DNA of 64,000 nt from Pseudomonadota bacterium (GTDB lineage: Bacteria; Pseudomonadota; Gammaproteobacteria; Xanthomonadales; SZUA-38). Of this stretch, positions 3,673-64,000 are shown one piece after another; the first letter of the stretch is position 1, and each line of letters opens with the position of its first letter. Location of the stretch: assembly GCA_039195135.1 (NCBI GenBank), contig JBCCVP010000004.1, positions 21,909-85,908 on the forward strand. The letters run 5' to 3'. The translations under genes and the position numbers were made by a program. The notes under the pieces are model-generated. The model was not told the origin of the DNA and did no database searches. It worked only from the letters and a program-made list of their open reading frames with translations.

Positions 3673-4359
3673 GTGAAAATACTCATTGTCGAAGATAACC
3701 CTGATATTGCCGCCAACATAGGCGATTACCTGGAAGACCGGGGTCACGTTGTCGACTTTGCCGGCGACGGTGTCACCGGCCTGCACCTGGCCGTGGTCAA
3801 CGAGTTTGACGCCATCGTGCTGGATCTGATGCTGCCAGGCATGGACGGACTGGACGTCTGTCGCAAGCTGCGGGAGGAAGCGCGCAAGAACACCCCGATT
3901 CTGATGCTCACGGCGCGCGACGCGCTGGAGCAGAAGCTGGAGGGTTTCAAAACCGGCGCTGACGACTACATGGTCAAGCCGTTTGAGCTGCAGGAGCTGG
4001 AGGCGCGGCTGGTGGTGCTGGCCCGCCGCGGCAAGGCCGTTGAACCGCGGGTGCTGGTGGTCGGGGATCTGGAGTACAACCTGGACACGCTGACCGTCAC
4101 TCGGGCCGGCACCGATATCAATCTCAACCCCACCGGCCTCAAACTGCTGCAGCGCCTCATGGAGGCGTCGCCGCGGGTGGTATCCCGGCACGAACTGGAA
4201 CTGCGCGTGTGGGGCGAAGAACTGCCTGACAGCGATAGCCTCCGGGTGCATATTCACAGCCTGCGGGCCGCCATCGACAAGCCTTTCGATGCGCCGATGA
4301 TCCAGACCCGGCACGGCATCGGATACCGCCTGGTTCAGCCCGATGCAGTTCAAGCGTAG
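3673..4359 (+). CDS. OmpR-family response regulator (two-component system 1)
   Basis: 228 aa with a GTG start. The receiver domain (ILIVEDN...DLMLPGMDG...LMLTARD...GADDYMVKPF) is followed by a winged-helix trans_reg_C domain (...IQTRHGIGYRL). Confidence 0.9.
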   Translation: MKILIVEDNPDIAANIGDYLEDRGHVVDFAGDGVTGLHLAVVNEFDAIVLDLMLPGMDGLDVCRKLREEARKNTPILMLTARDALEQKLEGFKTGADDYMVKPFELQELEARLVVLARRGKAVEPRVLVVGDLEYNLDTLTVTRAGTDINLNPTGLKLLQRLMEASPRVVSRHELELRVWGEELPDSDSLRVHIHSLRAAIDKPFDAPMIQTRHGIGYRLVQPDAVQA

Positions 4360-6609: not shown

Positions 6610-7400
6610 TGAAAAGACCCACGATCACCCTGATTGCCGCATTAGACCGGCGCCGTGCCATCGGCCGCGACGGCGACCTTCCCTGGCATCTGCCGGAGGA
6701 CCTGAAGCACTTCAAGCGGGAGACGCTGAATAAGACCATGGTGATGGGACGACGCACCTTTGACGAGATCGGCAAGCCGCTGCCGCGCCGCCACAACGTG
6801 GTGATCACCCGGGGCGGCCGGAAATTTCCCAAAGGCATTACGCCGGTTAAGTCCCTCGCCGAAGCGCTGGCCATCGCCGAGTCGCCGGAGGTGATGATCG
6901 CCGGCGGCGGCGAGATCTACCGGCTGGCGCTGCCGCGGGCGGACCGGCTGCTGCTCAGTCATGTCGACACGGTGGTTGCGGACGCCGATACCTTCTTTCC
7001 GCGATTTTCCAAAAAGCGCTGGGCCGGCTGGCTGATGGATCGACAGGGACAGGACCCGCGCCACGAGCACGCCGTCGAGTTCTGGGAATACCTGCCGGCG
7101 ATCAAAGACGACAAGGTGCTCTGCCGCACTCCCGCCGAAGGTCGTCGACCCACGCGCATTCCCAGCTGGAAATTTGACGCGATGACCGATGCCATTCTTG
7201 GCGCCGTCGACGCGGCGCCGGACGGGCGCATCGCGTTTCGTGATCTCGCTGCGGCGGTAGGCAAGCAACTGCCGGCGGAGCAGCGCAGCAAACTCGGCTC
7301 TATCGGCTGGCACGTAACCTGCGTCAAGCTGGAGCTGGAGGTGCGGGGCACCCTTACCCGCGGCAAAGCCGGCGGCCGGCAGGTGCTCTACCGCACCTGA
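6609..7400 (+). CDS. folA: Dihydrofolate reductase with a ~100-aa C-terminal extension
   Basis: The N-terminal ~160 aa are a clear DHFR (ITLIAALDRRRAIGRDGDLPWHLPEDLKHFKRETLNKTMVMGRRTFDEIGKPLPRR...IAGGGEIY). There is no stop after the DHFR domain, and 100 further residues follow. The 3' end overlaps convergent apaH by 13 bp. Confidence 0.85.
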   Translation: MKRPTITLIAALDRRRAIGRDGDLPWHLPEDLKHFKRETLNKTMVMGRRTFDEIGKPLPRRHNVVITRGGRKFPKGITPVKSLAEALAIAESPEVMIAGGGEIYRLALPRADRLLLSHVDTVVADADTFFPRFSKKRWAGWLMDRQGQDPRHEHAVEFWEYLPAIKDDKVLCRTPAEGRRPTRIPSWKFDAMTDAILGAVDAAPDGRIAFRDLAAAVGKQLPAEQRSKLGSIGWHVTCVKLELEVRGTLTRGKAGGRQVLYRT

Positions 7401-8185
7401 AACGGCCGCTCCGGCCGGCGCAGGTCCACCGCGGTCAGCGCGCCACCCCACACGCAGCCCGAGTCCAGGCACACGGCGGAAGGCGTGACGTGGTAGCCCA
7501 GCGTCGCCCAATGGCCAAACAGTACGCGCCAGGATTTCTTGCGCTCTTGAGGCCACGCAAACCACGGTTTCAGGCCCCGGCGCTGGGTCCCCGGCGGGCC
7601 TTTATGCTCGGCGTCAAATCTCCCTTCTGCATCCAGATACCGCATCCGGGTCAGGGTGGCGGCGATGGCGCGGCGGCGGCTGCTGCCCGTAAGGTTTAAG
7701 TCCCAGGAGGGTTTGTTGCCGTAAAGCTGGCCAATGCGTTCTTCCCAGTCCCGGGCCTGAAGCAGCCGCTCCAGCTCCCGAGCCCTTGCCCGCGCTTCCC
7801 GCGGCTTCCACGTCGGGTGGATGCCGGCGTGAACCAAAATGGTCTTGCGCTTCTTGAACAGCTTCAGCAGCCGCTGATGGCGCAGCCAGTGGATCAGTTC
7901 GTCAGCGTCCGGCGCCGCAACAACCTGCGCCAGTTCCCGCTCCGGCCGCTTCACCGCTCCGGCCGCCAGCGCCAGCAGATGCAGGTCGTGATTACCCAGC
8001 ACGGCCCGGACCGATTTGCGGTGCTTGAAGGCGAAGCGAAGGACCTTCAGGGATTGGCCGCCGCGATTCACCAGGTCTCCGGCAAACCAGAGTTTGTCCC
8101 GGCCCGGATCAAACGCCACCCGATCCAGCAGCCGACGCAGGTCGTCGTAGCAGCCCTGCACGTCGCCAACGACGTAGCGGGTCAT
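7388..8185 (-). CDS. apaH: Bis(5'-nucleosyl)-tetraphosphatase (symmetrical)
   Basis: Starts at MTRYVVGDVQGCYDDLRRLL...GDLVNRGGQS...GNHD, the calcineurin-like ApaH signature. The ATG at 8185 was chosen over the longer ORF start. The convergent neighbour is folA, as in E. coli. Confidence 0.9.
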   Translation of the reverse strand: MTRYVVGDVQGCYDDLRRLLDRVAFDPGRDKLWFAGDLVNRGGQSLKVLRFAFKHRKSVRAVLGNHDLHLLALAAGAVKRPERELAQVVAAPDADELIHWLRHQRLLKLFKKRKTILVHAGIHPTWKPREARARARELERLLQARDWEERIGQLYGNKPSWDLNLTGSSRRRAIAATLTRMRYLDAEGRFDAEHKGPPGTQRRGLKPWFAWPQERKKSWRVLFGHWATLGYHVTPSAVCLDSGCVWGGALTAVDLRRPERPFQVR

Positions 8186-8277: not shown

Positions 8278-9987
8278 ATGCGAGCTTCCCGCTTTCACAT
8301 TACCACCGTAAAAGAGACCCCGGCGGACGCCGAGATTGCCAGTCATCAGTTGATGCTGCGCACGGCGATGATAAGGCGTCTGACCTCCGGCATCTATACC
8401 TGGACTCCGCTCGGCTACCGCGTGCTGCGCAAGGTAGAAAATATTGTGCGCGAAGAAATGGACGCGGCCGGCTGCCTGGAGATGCTGATGCCATCGGTGC
8501 AGCCGGCGGAGCTGTGGCAGGAAAGCGGTCGCTGGGACGTCTTCGGGCCGCTGCTGCTGAAGATGGCGGACCGGGCCGAGCGGGACTACTGCTTTGGACC
8601 CACCCATGAAGAGGTGGTGAGCGAATTTGCCCGCGACGAAATCAAAAGCTACAAGCAGCTGCCGATCAACGTGTACCAGATTCAGACCAAGTTCCGCGAT
8701 GAGATCCGGCCGCGCTTTGGCGTGATGCGGTCGCGGGAATTCATCATGAAAGACGCCTATTCCTTCCACCTGGACCAGGCGTCCATGGACGAGACGTATC
8801 AGGACATGTACCGCGCCTACAGCCGCGTTTGTGAGCGCATGGGGCTTCAGTATCGGGCGGTGCAGGCGGACTCCGGCGCCATCGGCGGCAGCCACTCGCA
8901 CGAGTTTCAGGTGCTGGCCGAATCCGGCGAAGACGCCATCGTTTACTGCCCCGACAGCGACTACGCAGCCAATGTCGAGACCGCGGAAGGTGTGCCGGAT
9001 CGGGAGACCCCGCCGGCGCCCGCGGCGACCTTGAGCGAAGTGGCCACGCCGGAGGAGCGGACGATTGAGCAGGTGGCGGCGCGGCTGGGTGTTGAGTCGG
9101 ACCAGTGCCTGAAAACGCTGGCGGTAAAAGACGCCGACGGCGAACTGGTGCTGCTGGCGCTGCGCGGTGATCACCAGCTGAACGAAATTAAAGTGGGGCG
9201 GATTCCCAGGTTTGCCGGCGGCTGGGAGTTTGCCGGCCCGGAAGACATCGAGACACACCTGGGGGCCGAGCCCGGGTTCATAGGCCCGGTCAAGGTAGAC
9301 CTGCCGGTGATTGTCGATCGCAGCGCAGCCGTGCTGGCGGATTTCGTCTGTGGCGCAAATAAAAACGGCTACCACCTGACGGGCGCCAACTGGGACCGGG
9401 ACGCCCGGCATGAGCAGGTCGCCGATCTGCGCAACGTGGGGGCGGGCGACCTGAGCCCCGACGGCGCGGGTGTGCTGGCGGAGGCCCGGGGCATCGAGGT
9501 CGGGCATATCTTTCAGCTCGGCACCAAGTATTCGGAATCCATGGGGGTGACCGTGCTCGACGAGCAGGGGAAGTCCCGGCCGCTCCTGATGGGGTGCTAC
9601 GGCATCGGGGTGAGCCGCTTCGTCGGCGCTGCCATCGAGCAGCACCATGACGAGGCCGGTATCTGCTGGCCCGAAGGCATTGCGCCGTTTCAGGTGGCCC
9701 TGCTACCAATGAACGCCCACAAGTCCCACCGGGTGAAAGAGGCGGTGGAGTCGATCTATCAAACGCTCTCGGCGGCGGGCATCGAGGTCATTCTGGATGA
9801 CCGGGGGCTGCGGCCCGGCGTGATGTTTGCGGAGTGGGAGCTGATCGGCGTGCCCCACCGGCTGGTGATCGGCGAGCGAGGTCTAGATCAGGGGCAGGTG
9901 GAATACCGGCGCCGCACCGCGAGCGAGAATGAGTTTCTGCCGCTGGACGGGCTGCTCGAGGCGCTTCGGGAGAAACTGGAGGGTTAG
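8278..9987 (+). CDS. proS: Proline--tRNA ligase
   Basis: Begins [46 protein letters not shown]. Carries class II motifs and a bacterial-type insertion domain. The ATG at 8278 gives 569 aa. Confidence 0.95.
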
Positions 9988-17782: not shown

Positions 17783-17908
17783 TACTCATTGAGACCGGCT
17801 GAGGGACAGGCCCTTAGAAGCCGGGGCAACCTGCAGGTTTAACCCACCTGCAACGGTGCCAATTCCTGCGAAGTGACGGAATTGTTCCAGCACTTCGGGA
17901 AATGAGTG
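17783..17908 (+). promoter_or_regulatory. SAM-I (S-box) riboswitch
   Basis: Read directly: P1 ACTCATT (17784-17790) pairs with AATGAGT (17901-17907). Conserved cores are GAGA..GGCTGAGGGAC.GGCCC..GAAGCC.GGGCAACC, then P3 TGCAGGT/ACCTGCA, then ACGGTGCCAATTCC. Located 108 nt upstream of a Cys/Met PLP enzyme gene. Confidence 0.85.
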
Positions 17909-58713: not shown

Positions 58714-58742
58714 CCAATAAAGAAGGGGAGCCGAAGCTCCCC
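58714..58742 (-). terminator. Intrinsic terminator oriented for the minus strand
   Basis: On the minus strand, GGGGAGC-ttcg-GCTCCCC is followed by TTCTTTATT. On the plus strand the same hairpin is followed only by TTCAAAG. Confidence 0.6.
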
Positions 58743-59135
58743 TTCAAAGAAGTGTGTCAGTTCTCTGTTCGTCAGCAGTCTTAAGCCTGCGTCGCGCCGA
58801 ACCTTCCTGACTTTCCTGCGCCTTGCCGTTCCGAATAACCGCTTGGCTGCAGTTCCGAGCCGCTTCCCAGCCCGTTTTCTTTTTCGACGTCGCCGGCGCT
58901 TTCGCGTCGCCTGGCGTCTATCTCCGAGGAGTGCGACTCCTCTTCGCACCTGCCGCTGTGGTCTTTGCGAACTTCAGCTTACGCTTCCGCTCCGCGGCAG
59001 CCCGGGTCGTACCACTCGTCCCGGCTCGCTTGGCTGGTTCTCCGCTCCGGATTCCTGGTTGGGCTTCCGGCGCAGGGCCTGTCCGCTGCGTTGAAATCTA
59101 AGTTACGACCGGCCACCCCCGGCGTCAATTCCGCG
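58714..59135 (-). ncRNA. Candidate GGA-rich structured sRNA (CsrB/Rsm-like sponge?), hypothetical
   Basis: No credible ORF in any frame. I count 16 GGA on the minus strand versus 2 on the plus strand between 58743 and 59135. Local hairpins present GGA in their loops. A terminator lies at the 3' end and an AT-rich promoter-like region lies upstream. The 5' end is unknown. Confidence 0.3.
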
Positions 59136-59183
59136 TCAAAACTAAACAAAATATTGGCAAAAATACCAAAATACAAAGCAAAA

Positions 59184-59287
59184 GGGTCAGGTCTGTGCTT
59201 TGTGCATTTTCATGTTCGCTCCCCAATAAATTCAACTGATCAAAGAATTTATCCAGTCGCTTAGGGCCAGGTTTGTGCTTTTTGTTC
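59184..59287. repeat. Two ~22-bp direct repeats 80 bp apart in an AT-rich island
   Basis: GGGTCAGGTCTGTGCTTTGTGC (59184-59205) and GGGCCAGGTTTGTGCTTTTTGT (59264-59285) match at 18 of 22 positions. Confidence 0.5.
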
Positions 59288-59564
59288 AAAAGCGGTACAA
59301 AGGTTTTCAGCCCATTTTGGGGCTTCTCAAGAAAGTCATTAAAAAATATAAAAACCAATGATTTATGGTTTTTTTGGATAAACCGGCGTCTGAGTGGCTC
59401 GAGACATATATGTTCCGCTTTAGCGAAAATTCCTCAGATTTGGCCCAGCTTCCGCAGCTAAGCGGCGGAAATTCTTTTTATTTTTTTCAGCTGGCTCGGC
59501 GTAAAAAAAATCACCTGTCAGAGACACGGCCCGGAACGCTCGAAACCTGCTGGATTTACCAACG

Positions 59565-60503
59565 ATGACGCGGCCAGCGCGGATTTTGCTGGCGGACGGC
59601 TGGTACCACGTGGCCAATCGGGGGGCAGGGCGCCAACGGGTTTTTCGTAATGACCAGCACCGCGGCCTTTTCCTGGAACTCCTGCAGGATCTGCAGAGCG
59701 CCTTTGCCGTTGCGGTTCACGCCTACTGCCTGATGAGCAATCGCTACGACCTGATCGTGCACAACCGGGAGGCCAATCTGTCCGAGGCCATGCGCCATCT
59801 CAATGGGGTATACACGCAGCGCCACAATCGCGATGTGGGACGGGACGGTCCGTTATTTCGCGGCCGCTACCGGGCCGTCCTGTTTGACCCGGAGCTGGCC
59901 CTGCTGGCGGTGTCCCGGCATCTGCACCGCCGGCCACTGGCGACGGGCCGGGTCCCCACGCTGACCCGCTATCGCTGGTCCAGCTATCCCAGCTATGTGA
60001 CCCGGCGCCGGCGCCCGGACTGGCTGCACCGGGAGGCGGTGCTGGCGGCGGCAGCCGGTTCGGCCGCCCGCTATCGGGCCTATGTGGAGCGGGAAGGTGA
60101 ACCCAACGAGGTTGTGCGGCGCTTCTATCGTCAGAGCCGCCCCGGTCCCGTGCTCGGCGGGCCGGAGCTGCTCGCGCGGATTGCCGGGCAGGGCGACGCG
60201 GAGCTGACGGCGCCCGACGCCATTTCCTACCGTAGGGTGCTGCGGCTGGTTGCGGACCATTTTGAAGTGCCCCGGCGGAGCCTGCTCAGCGGAACTCAGG
60301 GCCGTCTCAATGAACCGCGCCTTGCGGCGATCTGGCTGTGCCGGCGCCACTGTCGCCTCACGCTCAAGGAGCTGGCGGCCGTTTTTCGGGTAGCGGGGTT
60401 CGGCACCATATCCGCTGCGCTCAACCGGATGCCTAAGCGCATGGGGCCCCGCTTCTGGAAACAGGTCGCGGCCCTTGAGGCGCAGCTTGCGCCGCAGCCC
60501 TGA
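59565..60503 (+). CDS. IS200-like/REP-associated Y1 transposase-fold protein with degenerate catalytic motifs, fused to a DnaA-domain-IV-like HTH
   Basis: 312 aa. The N-terminus (LADGWYHVANRGAGRQRVF...HAYCLMSNRYDLIV...GPLFRGRYRAV...YRWSSYPSY) follows the Y1 family pattern. The C-terminus (RRSLLSGTQGRLNEPRLAAIWLCRRHCRLTLKELAAVFRVAGFGTISAAL) resembles the DnaA C-terminal domain. Confidence 0.8.
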   Translation: MTRPARILLADGWYHVANRGAGRQRVFRNDQHRGLFLELLQDLQSAFAVAVHAYCLMSNRYDLIVHNREANLSEAMRHLNGVYTQRHNRDVGRDGPLFRGRYRAVLFDPELALLAVSRHLHRRPLATGRVPTLTRYRWSSYPSYVTRRRRPDWLHREAVLAAAAGSAARYRAYVEREGEPNEVVRRFYRQSRPGPVLGGPELLARIAGQGDAELTAPDAISYRRVLRLVADHFEVPRRSLLSGTQGRLNEPRLAAIWLCRRHCRLTLKELAAVFRVAGFGTISAALNRMPKRMGPRFWKQVAALEAQLAPQP

Positions 60504-62364: not shown

Positions 62365-62527
62365 TAGTGGACTGTAACGGCCAGTTTGAAAGCGCCTGCG
62401 TGCGCCTCGAACACGAATGCGGCGTTGCGCCTCGGACCAAAGAGCCTGCCACTGCTCGTCGGCGCGCCTTGCCTTGGTGCCCGACGCGTCACGCAGCCAC
62501 TTCCGAATTGGCCGTTACAGTCCACTA
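62365..62527. mobile_element. 163-bp MITE-like palindromic element (Correia-like)
   Basis: Perfect 19-bp terminal inverted repeats: TAGTGGACTGTAACGGCCA (62365-62383) and TGGCCGTTACAGTCCACTA (62509-62527). The interior is imperfectly self-complementary. TA lies at both ends. The element is bounded by the upstream gene's stop codon and the mnmC start codon. Confidence 0.6.
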
Positions 62528-64000
62528 AAAGCCGAACAGGTGGTCGATGCTGAAGCGGGTCTGGTCTCCGTCGCCGGCCAGCAGACCGTGGTAGCCGAAT
62601 AGGCGGCAGGTCACGTCGCGGATGAGCAGCTGGCTGGCGTGGCGCAGCACGCCCTGCGCAAACAGCTCGTCTATGAACAACAGCCGCGAGCCACGAAGCG
62701 GGATCGCGCAGTGAGTGCTGGCGAGTTGCTTGCCGGCGCTGTCCAGCAGCCGCAGTTCCGTGGCGGAGGCAGCGTGCCAGCGGGTCGAAGCGGGATATAT
62801 CAGACAGATAAAGGTGCGCTCCCCGGGCTGCCCGAGTCGCACGTAGAGCCGCGTCGTCAGCCCCGGTGCCGGTCCGCCGTAGCTCTGCGGTTCGCCGCGC
62901 CACACGTTCAGCATATTGAACATGTGGCTGCCAAAACTGGTTTCGGCCAGGTGCCCGGACGCCCGGTGGCGATAGCGGAAGATGGCGTGCAGCCAGCCGT
63001 CCACCGGCCCCGGGTGGGTCCGGTCATAGCTCAGTGCGAGGTGCTGTCCCGCCGGCACGGCCCGCCAGCGGTGGTCGTCTGCCTCGGCCACGTGGATCGG
63101 CTGGCGCTCAAGCTCCCGCCCATCCTGATCGTAGGTTCGCAGCAGCAGCTGCTGCGGTCCGTCCTGCACCGGCGACATGGGCGTCACCAGCAGCTGAGAT
63201 TCAAACTGATCTATCGGCAGCAGCGGGGCGGTGAGCAGGTACGCGTCTCCCAGTTGGGGTTCTACGTCCCAGAAGTCTGCGTCGGGAGTCAGATCATCAC
63301 GGCGGATATTGGCGTGGGCCACGTGGCTGCGGCCAGCTCGTGTCACCTCATAGCGGGGACGCAGCACCTGGTGCTGCGCTTCCAGCGTCGCCTGGGAGCG
63401 GTGGGCGGCGGCGGGCAGCCGCCAGGCCGCGGTACCCAGCGGTGGCACCGTTCCCTCAAAGACCGTGGGCTCTGGGGCTCCCGCCAGGCCCAAGCTGCCG
63501 GCCGGCAGGGGGCGCGCATGGGGATTTTGAATCCAGAGCGTCACGGACTCATCCGCCCGGCTCGACAGCGGGATGCCCCCGTAGCGTGCCGCGGGCCAGA
63601 TGTTGCTGTCGTGGGTGGTGGTGAGCTCTGCCCCGTCCCGGCGGAAGTCGAGAACATATTTCAGGACGTCGTGGCCCCGGGCGCCGACCGCGTGCACCAG
63701 CAGCTGACCGTCGAAGGAGGGCAGCGCGAACCGTTCCCGCACCTCGCCGCTGTCGATCACGATCTGCTGCTGCGCCGGCCCGGCTGCAACGTCCCAGCGT
63801 TTGAGTTCGCTGCCGTCGCCGGCGTAGAGCACGCAGCGCAGCGTGACCTGCGTTGCGCCGTAGCGTGCCCAGTAGTTGTTGGTGCAAAAGCGCGTGGCCA
63901 GCTGCGGCCCGGCGCGAAACAGCGCCAGGTCGTAAACAAAATTCAGCGGCGACAGGTAGTCTTCGGGAAAGGTCAGCCACGAGCCCGCCAGCTTTAGGGA
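62525..64000 (-). CDS. Protein of unknown function (5' end beyond the window)
   Basis: The frame stays open with no stop from 63832 to the window edge, with coding-like composition (..FPEDYLSPLNFVYDLALFRAGPQLATRFCTNNYWARYG..). More than 490 aa are visible. I recognise no domain. Confidence 0.6.
   Translation of the reverse strand, partial: SLKLAGSWLTFPEDYLSPLNFVYDLALFRAGPQLATRFCTNNYWARYGATQVTLRCVLYAGDGSELKRWDVAAGPAQQQIVIDSGEVRERFALPSFDGQLLVHAVGARGHDVLKYVLDFRRDGAELTTTHDSNIWPAARYGGIPLSSRADESVTLWIQNPHARPLPAGSLGLAGAPEPTVFEGTVPPLGTAAWRLPAAAHRSQATLEAQHQVLRPRYEVTRAGRSHVAHANIRRDDLTPDADFWDVEPQLGDAYLLTAPLLPIDQFESQLLVTPMSPVQDGPQQLLLRTYDQDGRELERQPIHVAEADDHRWRAVPAGQHLALSYDRTHPGPVDGWLHAIFRYRHRASGHLAETSFGSHMFNMLNVWRGEPQSYGGPAPGLTTRLYVRLGQPGERTFICLIYPASTRWHAASATELRLLDSAGKQLASTHCAIPLRGSRLLFIDELFAQGVLRHASQLLIRDVTCRLFGYHGLLAGDGDQTRFSIDHLFGF

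Follow-up and report, generated by a model that had tools for sequence, protein, structure and literature searches.

A fusion of a Y1 (HUH) domain with a DnaA_C domain has been described as subgroup 2.1.2 of the class 2 Y1 HuH proteins (Quentin et al. 2018, PMC6006769), and the same authors equate subclass 2.1 with the TIRYTs reported by Di Nocera et al. in 2013 (PMC6006769; PMC3733652). TIRYTs are RAYT-like genes that are bracketed by terminal inverted repeats (TIRs) sharing the motif GGGGWSAS; such units are called "TIRtrons" (PMC3733652). The HUH motif and the catalytic tyrosine are stated to be conserved in all TIRYTs (PMC3733652), and sequences without these motifs were dropped by Quentin et al. 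as probably non-functional (PMC6006769). Here, we describe a gene at positions 59565–60503 (plus strand) of a 64,000-nucleotide (nt) stretch of contig JBCCVP010000004.1 from a Pseudomonadota bacterium; this entire stretch is hereafter called "the window." The 312-amino-acid (aa) product of the gene is a TIRYT by descent, yet it fails the functional hallmarks of the family, namely the HUH motif, the tyrosine, and the TIR pair. Judging from comparative analyses, the open reading frame (ORF) most likely encodes a domesticated TIRYT-family member (Y1 subclass 2.1.2) that is unable to cut DNA. The Y1+DnaA_C fusion is already known; what is new is a narrow gammaproteobacterial clade in which the catalytic positions are replaced, the gene is under purifying selection, relic boxes persist upstream, and a candidate RNA gene is linked to the locus.

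The product combines a Y1/HUH fold, a conserved middle region, and a DnaA-domain-IV-like helix-turn-helix (HTH); the NCBI entry with exactly this sequence is named "MAG: transposase [Pseudomonadota bacterium]" (P0001). The Y1 domain spans approximately residues 6–139 (59580–59981, plus strand), and the HTH domain spans approximately residues 216–308 (60210–60488, plus strand). A Pfam scan, which had been proposed as a check along with the initial annotation of this gene, matched both of the expected families, but the scores of the window protein by itself were sub-threshold: Y1_Tnp aligned to aa 13–91 (E = 1.4e-4, 22.4 bits vs. a gathering score of 23), and Bac_DnaA_C aligned to aa 224–284 (E = 1e-5, 25.9 bits vs. 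a gathering score of 31.5). The matches of its relatives were stronger support. Among 33 aligned relatives, 30 matched Y1_Tnp (best E, 1e-14) and 32 matched Bac_DnaA_C (best E, 9e-13), and a family profile built from 117 sequences matched the DnaA domain IV structures 2hcb, 1l8q, and 1j1v with E values from 1e-14 to 3e-11. Because these family matches offset the sub-threshold scores of the window protein, the domain assignment is secure. The NCBIfam model REP_Tyr_transpos also aligned with the window protein (aa 6–139 vs. profile positions 4–146 of 146, E = 2e-9).

An AlphaFold2 (AF2) model calculated from the 117-sequence alignment had a predicted local distance difference test score (pLDDT) of 92.6 and a predicted template-modeling score (pTM) of 0.79, and its secondary-structure elements occur in the order expected for a Y1 fold. 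When this model was compared to the PDB with Foldseek, the first rank was taken by 4er8_A, the REP hairpin-bound RAYT of Escherichia coli (E = 1e-5, target TM score 0.76), followed by the TnpA structures of IS608, ISDra2, and IS200 (2vjv, 2a6m, 2xo6, 2f4f). The structural kinship to TnpA(IS608) and RAYT that had been anticipated is thus evident in the model. It is the fold search alone that links the Y1 domain to 4ER8 and IS608; sequence-level searches of the PDB with this domain returned no match, whether the query was the window protein or an intact relative. The C-terminal region had initially been read as a DnaA-domain-IV-like HTH, and this reading is borne out by Bac_DnaA_C, the family profile (1e-14), and the Foldseek match to the DnaA DNA-binding domain 3pvp (TM score 0.78). 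The full DnaA model, TIGR00362, aligned to aa 218–292 only (21 bits vs. 344); neither an AAA+ domain nor DnaA domains I–III were matched in the window protein, leaving domain IV alone.

The catalytic positions of this protein do not carry the expected residues. The HUH column is occupied by R60-Y61-D62 (nt 59742–59750), the catalytic-Tyr column by H119 (nt 59919–59921), and the column of the third metal ligand (N/Q) by R123 (nt 59931–59933). By comparison, H-Y-H / Y / N is retained in 90 of the 117 aligned family members, or 90 of the 98 that lie outside the clade described below. The HUH context in the family is CLMxNHYHLL, and the Tyr context is SRYIHRNPL vs. SRHLHRRPL in the window protein. 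In the AF2 model, the replaced positions are located on the expected Y1 elements (strand 60–67 and helix 109–121). No shifted HUH motif or alternative Tyr was present in the profile or family alignments (33 and 117 sequences). The original proposal, that a Y1-fold protein had lost both the HUH histidines and the tyrosine, is therefore upheld by the 117-sequence alignment.

These replacements are shared by the 19 closest clusters (90% identity), which are 54–85% identical to the window protein and derive from Xanthomonadales, Lysobacterales, and unclassified gammaproteobacterial metagenome-assembled genomes (MAGs). We refer to this group as the "dead clade." Our sample of it, drawn entirely from MAGs or metagenomes, comprises approximately 11 loci and the 19 protein clusters. 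All 19 clusters have full-length, intact reading frames, and all 19 have R-[YF]-D at the HUH position. Position 119 is H in 16 of 19, R in two, and Y in one; at position 123, 17 clusters have R and the other two have K. Pairwise identities are 48–89% inside the dead clade and 27–47% between it and the remainder of the alignment. Only columns 60, 62, 123, 127, and 146 cleanly split the clade from the rest; the clade-separating columns are essentially the active site. The catalytic loss is a clade-wide feature and not an accident of one sequence.

In a library of 1.84 billion representatives (50% identity), the dead clade is reduced to a single representative, P0014, while family representatives with full-length homology at E ≤ 1e-30 number 471 clusters (50% identity). 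Catalytic substitutions are also found among the latter relatives: at least one substitution at HUH/Tyr affects 31 of the nearest 150 representatives at 50% identity (P0121–P0267), and in many cases the Asn ligand is changed as well. In these proteins, the first His is often replaced by Q, E, S, G, or R, and F, H, L, or R sometimes takes the place of the Tyr. Catalytic loss may thus be a recurrent fate in the Y1+DnaA_C family.

Could the gene simply be a relic, i.e., a pseudogenized transposase without function? The exclusion of motif-less Y1 sequences as likely non-functional by Quentin et al. (PMC6006769) would favor this explanation, as would the fact that approximately 20% of the closest representatives harbor at least one catalytic substitution. 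We examined selection by calculating pairwise ratios of nonsynonymous to synonymous substitution rates (dN/dS) by the Nei-Gojobori method. For the window protein vs. that of locus L096 (85% aa identity, dS ~1.0), dN/dS was 0.092 overall, 0.078 in the Y1 domain, and 0.113 in the HTH domain; for L003 vs. L094, the respective values were 0.097, 0.058, and 0.109. The ratio was approximately 0.06–0.14 across the comparisons, indicative of strong purifying selection, and the Y1 domain, despite its lost chemistry, had the lowest dN/dS of the protein (0.058–0.078). Such low values, with the Y1 domain lowest of all, exclude a decaying pseudogene. The relic explanation is further contradicted by the full-length frames in 19 clusters, the conserved synteny, the confident AF2 model, and the fixation of the same four replacements across the clade, and we accord it almost no weight. 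The selection analysis, the synteny, and the fixed clade-wide replacements agree with the initial annotation in that the protein is domesticated and non-catalytic rather than an active transposase.

The gene order glnE-gap-gene-mnmC is kept in six loci (the window, L001, L003, L094, L005, and L008), and the orthologs having this glnE-mnmC synteny are 55–64% identical. Three other neighborhoods were found for the dead-clade gene: HPPD/sulfotransferase (L007 and L090), SnoaL/leucyl aminopeptidase (L092), and PQQ-repeat protein/hemerythrin (L097). In all four genomic contexts, the gene is accompanied by an upstream gap of approximately 900 nt. A tblastn search of the 64-kb window yielded no second copy of the gene, and multiple copies with IS200/IS605-type ends, which would have pointed to an active element, were likewise absent from the window. 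These comparisons, in which copy number was assessed within contigs, indicate that inheritance is vertical and single-copy.

The half of the gap adjoining the protein gene includes an AT-rich island (59100–59500; GC fraction, 0.38–0.42). Within the island is a 22-nt direct repeat, with copies situated 80 nt apart (AGGGTCAGGTCTGTGCTTTGTG at 59183 and AGGGCCAGGTTTGTGCTTTTTG at 59263), and each copy contains a box that resembles a TIR. Box 1, AGGGTCAGGTCTGTG (59183–59197, plus strand), is located at −381 relative to the ORF start and approximately 90 nt upstream of the start of the candidate RNA described below. Box 2, AGGGCCAGGTTTGTG (59263–59277, plus strand), is more degenerate and lies 80 nt from box 1. 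The family consensus for the box is GGGGTCAGGTCTGT. Six orthologous loci share an island that is otherwise unalignable, and the two boxes supply some of its few invariant columns. Compared to the TIRs of intact relatives, such as GGGGTCAGGTTGC (L075), GGGTCAGGCGTTG (L029), and GGGTCAAGTCTAG (L016), the two upstream boxes are, on sequence grounds, plainly homologous. No other close match to the boxes occurs in the 64-kb window.

The disposition of the boxes nevertheless differs from that of the TIRs of intact relatives. Of 60 loci of such relatives, 57 have GGGTCA[AG] at −44 to −52 relative to the start codon (coding strand), and 46 have it again in inverted orientation approximately 3 nt past the stop codon; the chance expectation for this motif is 0.028 per locus. 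Across the dead clade, by contrast, the two boxes occur upstream only, in the same orientation and between −280 and −440. Their spacing of 80–81 nt is kept in the window, L007, L090, L008, and a second RNA-associated copy of the pair in L007 (L007b). A downstream inverted partner was not found in the dead clade. One candidate in the window, GGGGTGAC (60544–60537), overlaps the mnmC stop codon and is missing in every ortholog, and we attribute it to chance; its motif has just 11 matches in the window. We also found no conserved inverted repeats or hairpin pairs around the gene or around the unit formed by the RNA and the gene. The initial impression that the gene has no flanking insertion-sequence ends or hairpins is hence correct with respect to a downstream TIR or an inverted pair, but it must be amended to accommodate the two TIR-homologous boxes upstream.

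Variations on the TIR arrangement were observed among the intact relatives as well. In L024 (~3981–4075) and L082 (~3987–4040), tandem arrays of five to six inverted GGGTCAR boxes with a spacing of approximately 13 nt are found just past the stop codon of the intact TIRYT, and L039 has two TIR copies upstream. In the window, box 2 is separated from the ORF start by an AT-rich stretch (59285–59564, no strand assigned) that aligns poorly and has a poorly conserved sequence; the promoter and 5′ untranslated region of the gene presumably lie in it.

The presence of a DnaA-like domain next to an AT-rich island raised the prospect that the protein is an origin binder and that the island serves as an origin or as a site for DnaA titration. 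Resemblance to DnaA domain IV is evident in the fold and at the level of profile homology (aa ~216–308). R252, located in a P-R-L-A stretch, is invariant in the 33-sequence alignment and nearly so in the 117-sequence alignment; it would correspond to the minor-groove Arg of DnaA. Unlike DnaA, the protein has no domains I–III (and thus no AAA+ domain), and the residues of the recognition helix are different: at the "DHTTV" stretch of DnaA, the family consensus reads "HYSSV," and the window protein reads G-F-G-T-I-S (33-sequence alignment). Nor are DnaA boxes enriched nearby. A search for TTWTNCACA with at most one mismatch found 34 sites window-wide vs. 29.7 expected; only two of these fall inside the island, both imperfect, and the island has no perfect box. 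The initial description of the island as a carrier of repeats and DnaA-box-like 9-mers is accurate in regard to AT-richness and the 22-nt repeat, but the 9-mers occur at chance levels, and the repeats are TIR-type boxes. Targeting of replication forks has been a matter of speculation for these proteins (PMC6006769), but the same work finds the TIR consensus to be unlike DnaA boxes, and the only conserved elements of the island are the TIR-type boxes and the putative promoter of the RNA. We thus view a role in replication as very improbable.

The glnE-proximal, GC-normal half of the gap has a different character. A block of approximately 390 nt (58714–59107) is more conserved than the protein gene itself, and within it, conservation and covariation point to a candidate structured non-coding RNA of approximately 380 nt (58714–59093, minus strand), whose transcription would be divergent to that of the protein gene. 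Its conserved core spans 97 nt (58851–58947). Folding of the alignment with RNAalifold yielded −108.5 kcal/mol for the minus strand vs. −90.2 kcal/mol for the plus strand, with covariation terms of −9.3 and −3.6, respectively; G-U pairs of the minus strand would be A-C on the plus strand. The consensus structure derived from 11 copies has 68 pairs in 14 helices, with 94.8% of cells paired. Compensatory changes were found at 41 of the 68 pairs, compared to 8–10 when the partners were slid by 1–3 columns, and the observed pairing and covariation values were reached by none of 500 shuffles. The window RNA sequence itself had a folding z-score of −2.8.

Both ends of the candidate RNA have recognizable signals. 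A putative sigma-70-type promoter (59100–59128, minus strand) consists of a −35 element, TTGACG (59128–59123), and a −10 element, TAACTT (59105–59100), separated by a 17-nt spacer; TTGAC and TA(A/G)(C/T)(C/T)T at a spacing of 17–18 nt are present in all seven of the aligned RNA copies. At the other end, a Rho-independent terminator (58714–58745, minus strand) has a 10-bp stem, GAAGGGGAGC/GCTCCCCTTC, that is followed by a U-tract. It was detected in a terminator scan and corresponds to helix 14, which is kept with compensatory changes in 11 of 11 copies. A further observation concerns the −35 element: on the complementary strand, TTGAC[C/G] (59123–59128 in the window) reads as the core of the boxes, GGTCAA, and the corresponding promoter region of L001 (~7579–7590) reads GTGGGTCAATTG. 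The RNA promoter may itself be derived from a TIR copy.

The candidate RNA did not resemble any family that we could find. It was unmatched in Rfam at the gathering threshold in the window and in five orthologous loci, and permissive filters (up to E ≤ 10) returned only noise (E = 1.4–10). The sole Rfam family that attained its gathering score in the window is a SAM riboswitch (RF00162) at 17783–17908 (plus strand; 86.9 bits). No homolog of the RNA was detected on plasmids or in IMG/VR, and JGI metagenomes contained none beyond one contig that was already in the data set. We considered a sponge of the CsrB/RsmZ type and rejected it: counts of GGA were within approximately 1.5–2 standard deviations of composition-matched shuffles, and GGA in loops was not conserved. 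There is no conserved ORF within the RNA. Pfam-less ORFs have been called over it in L005 (6929–7411, minus strand; 160 aa) and in L090/L091 (4701–5204, plus strand; 167 aa), but these are probably annotation artifacts. Finally, a part of the RNA core (58891–58911) resembles a coding segment of the protein gene (60192–60212) in which D-A-E(V/L) codons precede the HTH; in L092, the similarity between the core (7309–7324) and the coding sequence (8657–8672) extends to 15 of 16 nt. The two segments have the same sense, which argues against complementarity, and the likeness is probably a coincidence of GC-rich DNA. In sum, we regard 59093→58714 (minus strand) as a candidate for a new structured RNA of approximately 380 nt.

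The RNA and the dead-clade gene were found to be tightly associated. Searches with nhmmer and a calibrated covariance model (CM) of the 97-nt core detected the RNA at every dead-clade locus with sufficient upstream sequence, in four unrelated neighborhoods. Beside catalytically intact relatives, the same tools (nhmmer and CM) detected it at 0 of 78 loci. P0029, a relative whose active site is partly degenerate (RYH / Y / I), has neither the large gap nor the RNA; therefore, the link to the RNA is specific to the fully dead clade. At its locus (L095, 6123–7732), the P0029 gene is followed by a gene with a ParB_N domain and one with a TIR_2 domain in an arrangement that looks defense-like. For the locus in the window, PADLOC did not find a defense-system match.

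An orphan second copy of the RNA was found in two of the loci (L007, 4681–5180; L090, 4723–5230, minus strand), in the gap between genes for NAD kinase and an AsnC-type regulator and 2.4 kb from the main copy. The orphan copies retain both boxes, 80 nt apart, upstream of the promoter, but no protein gene or remnant thereof is located next to them. Because the boxes are kept there without the gene, we conclude that they belong to the promoter region of the RNA. The orphan copies also fit with the idea that the protein works on the boxes in trans, and a single protein gene could, by this evidence, serve two RNA loci.

Taken at face value, mobility of this kind might signify that the protein is still an enzyme, either with a re-wired active site (using H119 or another nucleophile) or as an agent that mobilizes the unit of RNA and gene. 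A unit of approximately 1.9 kb is, after all, present in four neighborhoods, the RNA and boxes are duplicated in L007 and L090, and the replacements are specific and conserved instead of random. However, all three metal ligands have been replaced by residues that are unable to chelate in the manner of HUH, and the variability of position 119 (H, R, or Y) runs contrary to the notion of a new nucleophile. There is also no TIR pair, no repeat family in the window, and but one copy per locus. As the relocated lineages are just 55–60% identical, ordinary rearrangement over a long time suffices to explain the different contexts. An enzymatic function is accordingly a quite unlikely explanation, albeit one that we find slightly less implausible than a relic or a replication factor.

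How, then, does this locus compare to the described systems? It shares with TIRYTs/TIRtrons a two-domain architecture of ~310–330 aa, a full-length identity of 35–47% to intact members, and the non-catalytic motifs WYHVxNRG, GVYTQ, DGPLFRGRY, and YRWSSY; moreover, the boxes of the window fit both the published GGGGWSAS motif and the GGGTCAR TIRs of its relatives. It departs from them in that the HUH, Tyr, and Asn ligand are replaced, while published TIRYTs keep HUH and Tyr; in that its boxes form a direct pair at −300/−380 instead of being at approximately −48, with the downstream inverted repeat missing; and in that the locus is syntenic, single-copy, and endowed with an obligatory structured RNA that intact TIRtrons lack. 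With the RAYT of the REPtron (4ER8) and the TnpA proteins of IS608 and ISDra2, the protein has the Y1 fold in common, and REP_Tyr_transpos aligns from end to end. It also resembles domesticated RAYTs in its single-copy, host-maintained status (PMC5581495). RAYTs and TnpAs, however, keep HUH and Tyr and act on single-stranded DNA (ssDNA) hairpins (REPs or subterminal palindromes), whereas the protein described here has lost its catalytic residues and has an extra HTH domain, and we saw no family of REP-like hairpins. In the literature, we found no description of dead TIRYTs or RAYTs under selection, nor of an RNA associated with them.

From these considerations, we lean toward a model in which the protein is a non-catalytic regulator that would bind to the TIR-derived boxes and control transcription of the RNA, and probably its own as well; on the strength of the comparative data, we deem this somewhat more probable than all of the alternatives combined. 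The ancestor would have been a TIRtron of approximately 1 kb, in which inverted copies of GGGTCAR flanked the gene at approximately −48 and +3. After capture by the host, the transposase would have lost catalysis, R, D, and R/K having replaced the metal ligands H, H, and N, and mostly H the nucleophilic Y, while the fold, the likely dimer, and the HTH were retained. The right repeat would have been lost, and the left repeat would have persisted as two boxes 80 nt apart, an operator-like pair upstream of the promoter of a divergent, clade-specific RNA gene. The protein, probably dimeric like other Y1 enzymes, would bind these boxes and thereby control the RNA and probably itself. In effect, the transposase would have become a transcription factor and the transposon end an operator. 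The starting points of this model were observed directly, i.e., the fold, the replacements, the selection, the synteny, the homology of boxes and TIRs, the structure of the RNA, and its strict co-occurrence with the gene; the binding of the boxes by the protein, the domain responsible, and the regulatory outcome are what these observations, taken together, would suggest.

Several considerations temper our preference for a regulator. The whole case is comparative, and the data set is small, being confined to the roughly 11 loci and 19 clusters of MAG or metagenomic origin. The RNA promoter is putative, having been deduced from its conservation; a consensus promoter scan did not call it, and its −10 element matches the consensus at three of six positions. 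The distance from the boxes to the promoter differs by approximately 40 nt between lineages, which is unusual for a classic activator site. Lastly, the most constrained domain is the Y1 domain, not the HTH, which hints that the binding of hairpins (ssDNA or RNA) or another activity of the Y1 domain is at least as important as the binding of double-stranded DNA.

This last point bears on another explanation, in which the dead Y1 domain, a module evolved for holding nucleic-acid hairpins, would grip the adjacent structured RNA to form a ribonucleoprotein (RNP). Such an RNP might bind DNA as an RNA-scaffolded or RNA-guided complex, with the boxes as possible loading or target sites, and it is compatible with the regulator model. 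In its favor, the RNA strictly co-occurs with the dead clade and is missing beside intact relatives, constraint is greatest in the Y1 domain although catalysis has been lost, the top structural match is a hairpin-bound RAYT (4er8), and the RNA combines many conserved hairpins with a core that does not vary. We know, however, of no evidence for RNA binding by any Y1 protein, and the RNA has no obvious guide-like variable segment. Box-like sequence is not conserved within the RNA, as the GUCAGG at helix 11 covaries as part of a stem, and simple regulation explains the co-occurrence equally well. A precedent is provided by TldRs, which are nuclease-dead TnpB derivatives that serve as transcription factors and work with RNAs (bioRxiv 10.1101/2023.11.30.569447). 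Like the TldR genes, the gene studied here encodes a catalysis-dead, host-kept protein from a transposon of the IS200/IS605 type, beside a non-coding RNA gene. The analogy is functional only, with no homology implied: TldRs have a RuvC/TnpB fold vs. the Y1/HUH fold here, and no guide function was identified for the RNA of this locus. All told, we consider an RNP to be a credible minority possibility, well behind the regulator yet clearly ahead of an enzyme. Marginally more tentative is the broader proposition that the dead Y1-HTH protein and the ~380-nt RNA constitute a previously unknown, TIRtron-derived protein-RNA system in which the Y1 domain would hold the RNA and the complex would act at the boxes or at RNA-specified sites. 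If true, such a system would be a Y1/HUH counterpart of the route from TnpB to TldR, i.e., from a transposon nuclease to an RNA-associated regulator.

One feature outside of the unit deserves mention. Downstream of mnmC, the window contains a 435-aa ORF (62525–63832, minus strand), and the orthologous loci hold a Pfam-less protein of approximately 612 aa at this location.

The main survey of the superfamily excluded Y1 proteins without the HUH or Tyr motifs, treating them as pseudogenes (PMC6006769); in the clade described here, such a protein, altered at each of the four catalytic positions, is strongly selected, is by all comparative indications vertically inherited, and is associated with relic transposon ends. 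The sole known genomic correlate of the candidate ~380-nt RNA is the dead TIRYT protein, and this pairing affords an experimental handle on both. To our knowledge, the conversion of a transposase to a DNA-binding factor, although well known in eukaryotes, has rarely been documented in bacteria. The locus may represent a clean bacterial case of this conversion, with the transposase having become a DNA-binding factor and the TIR a cis-element.

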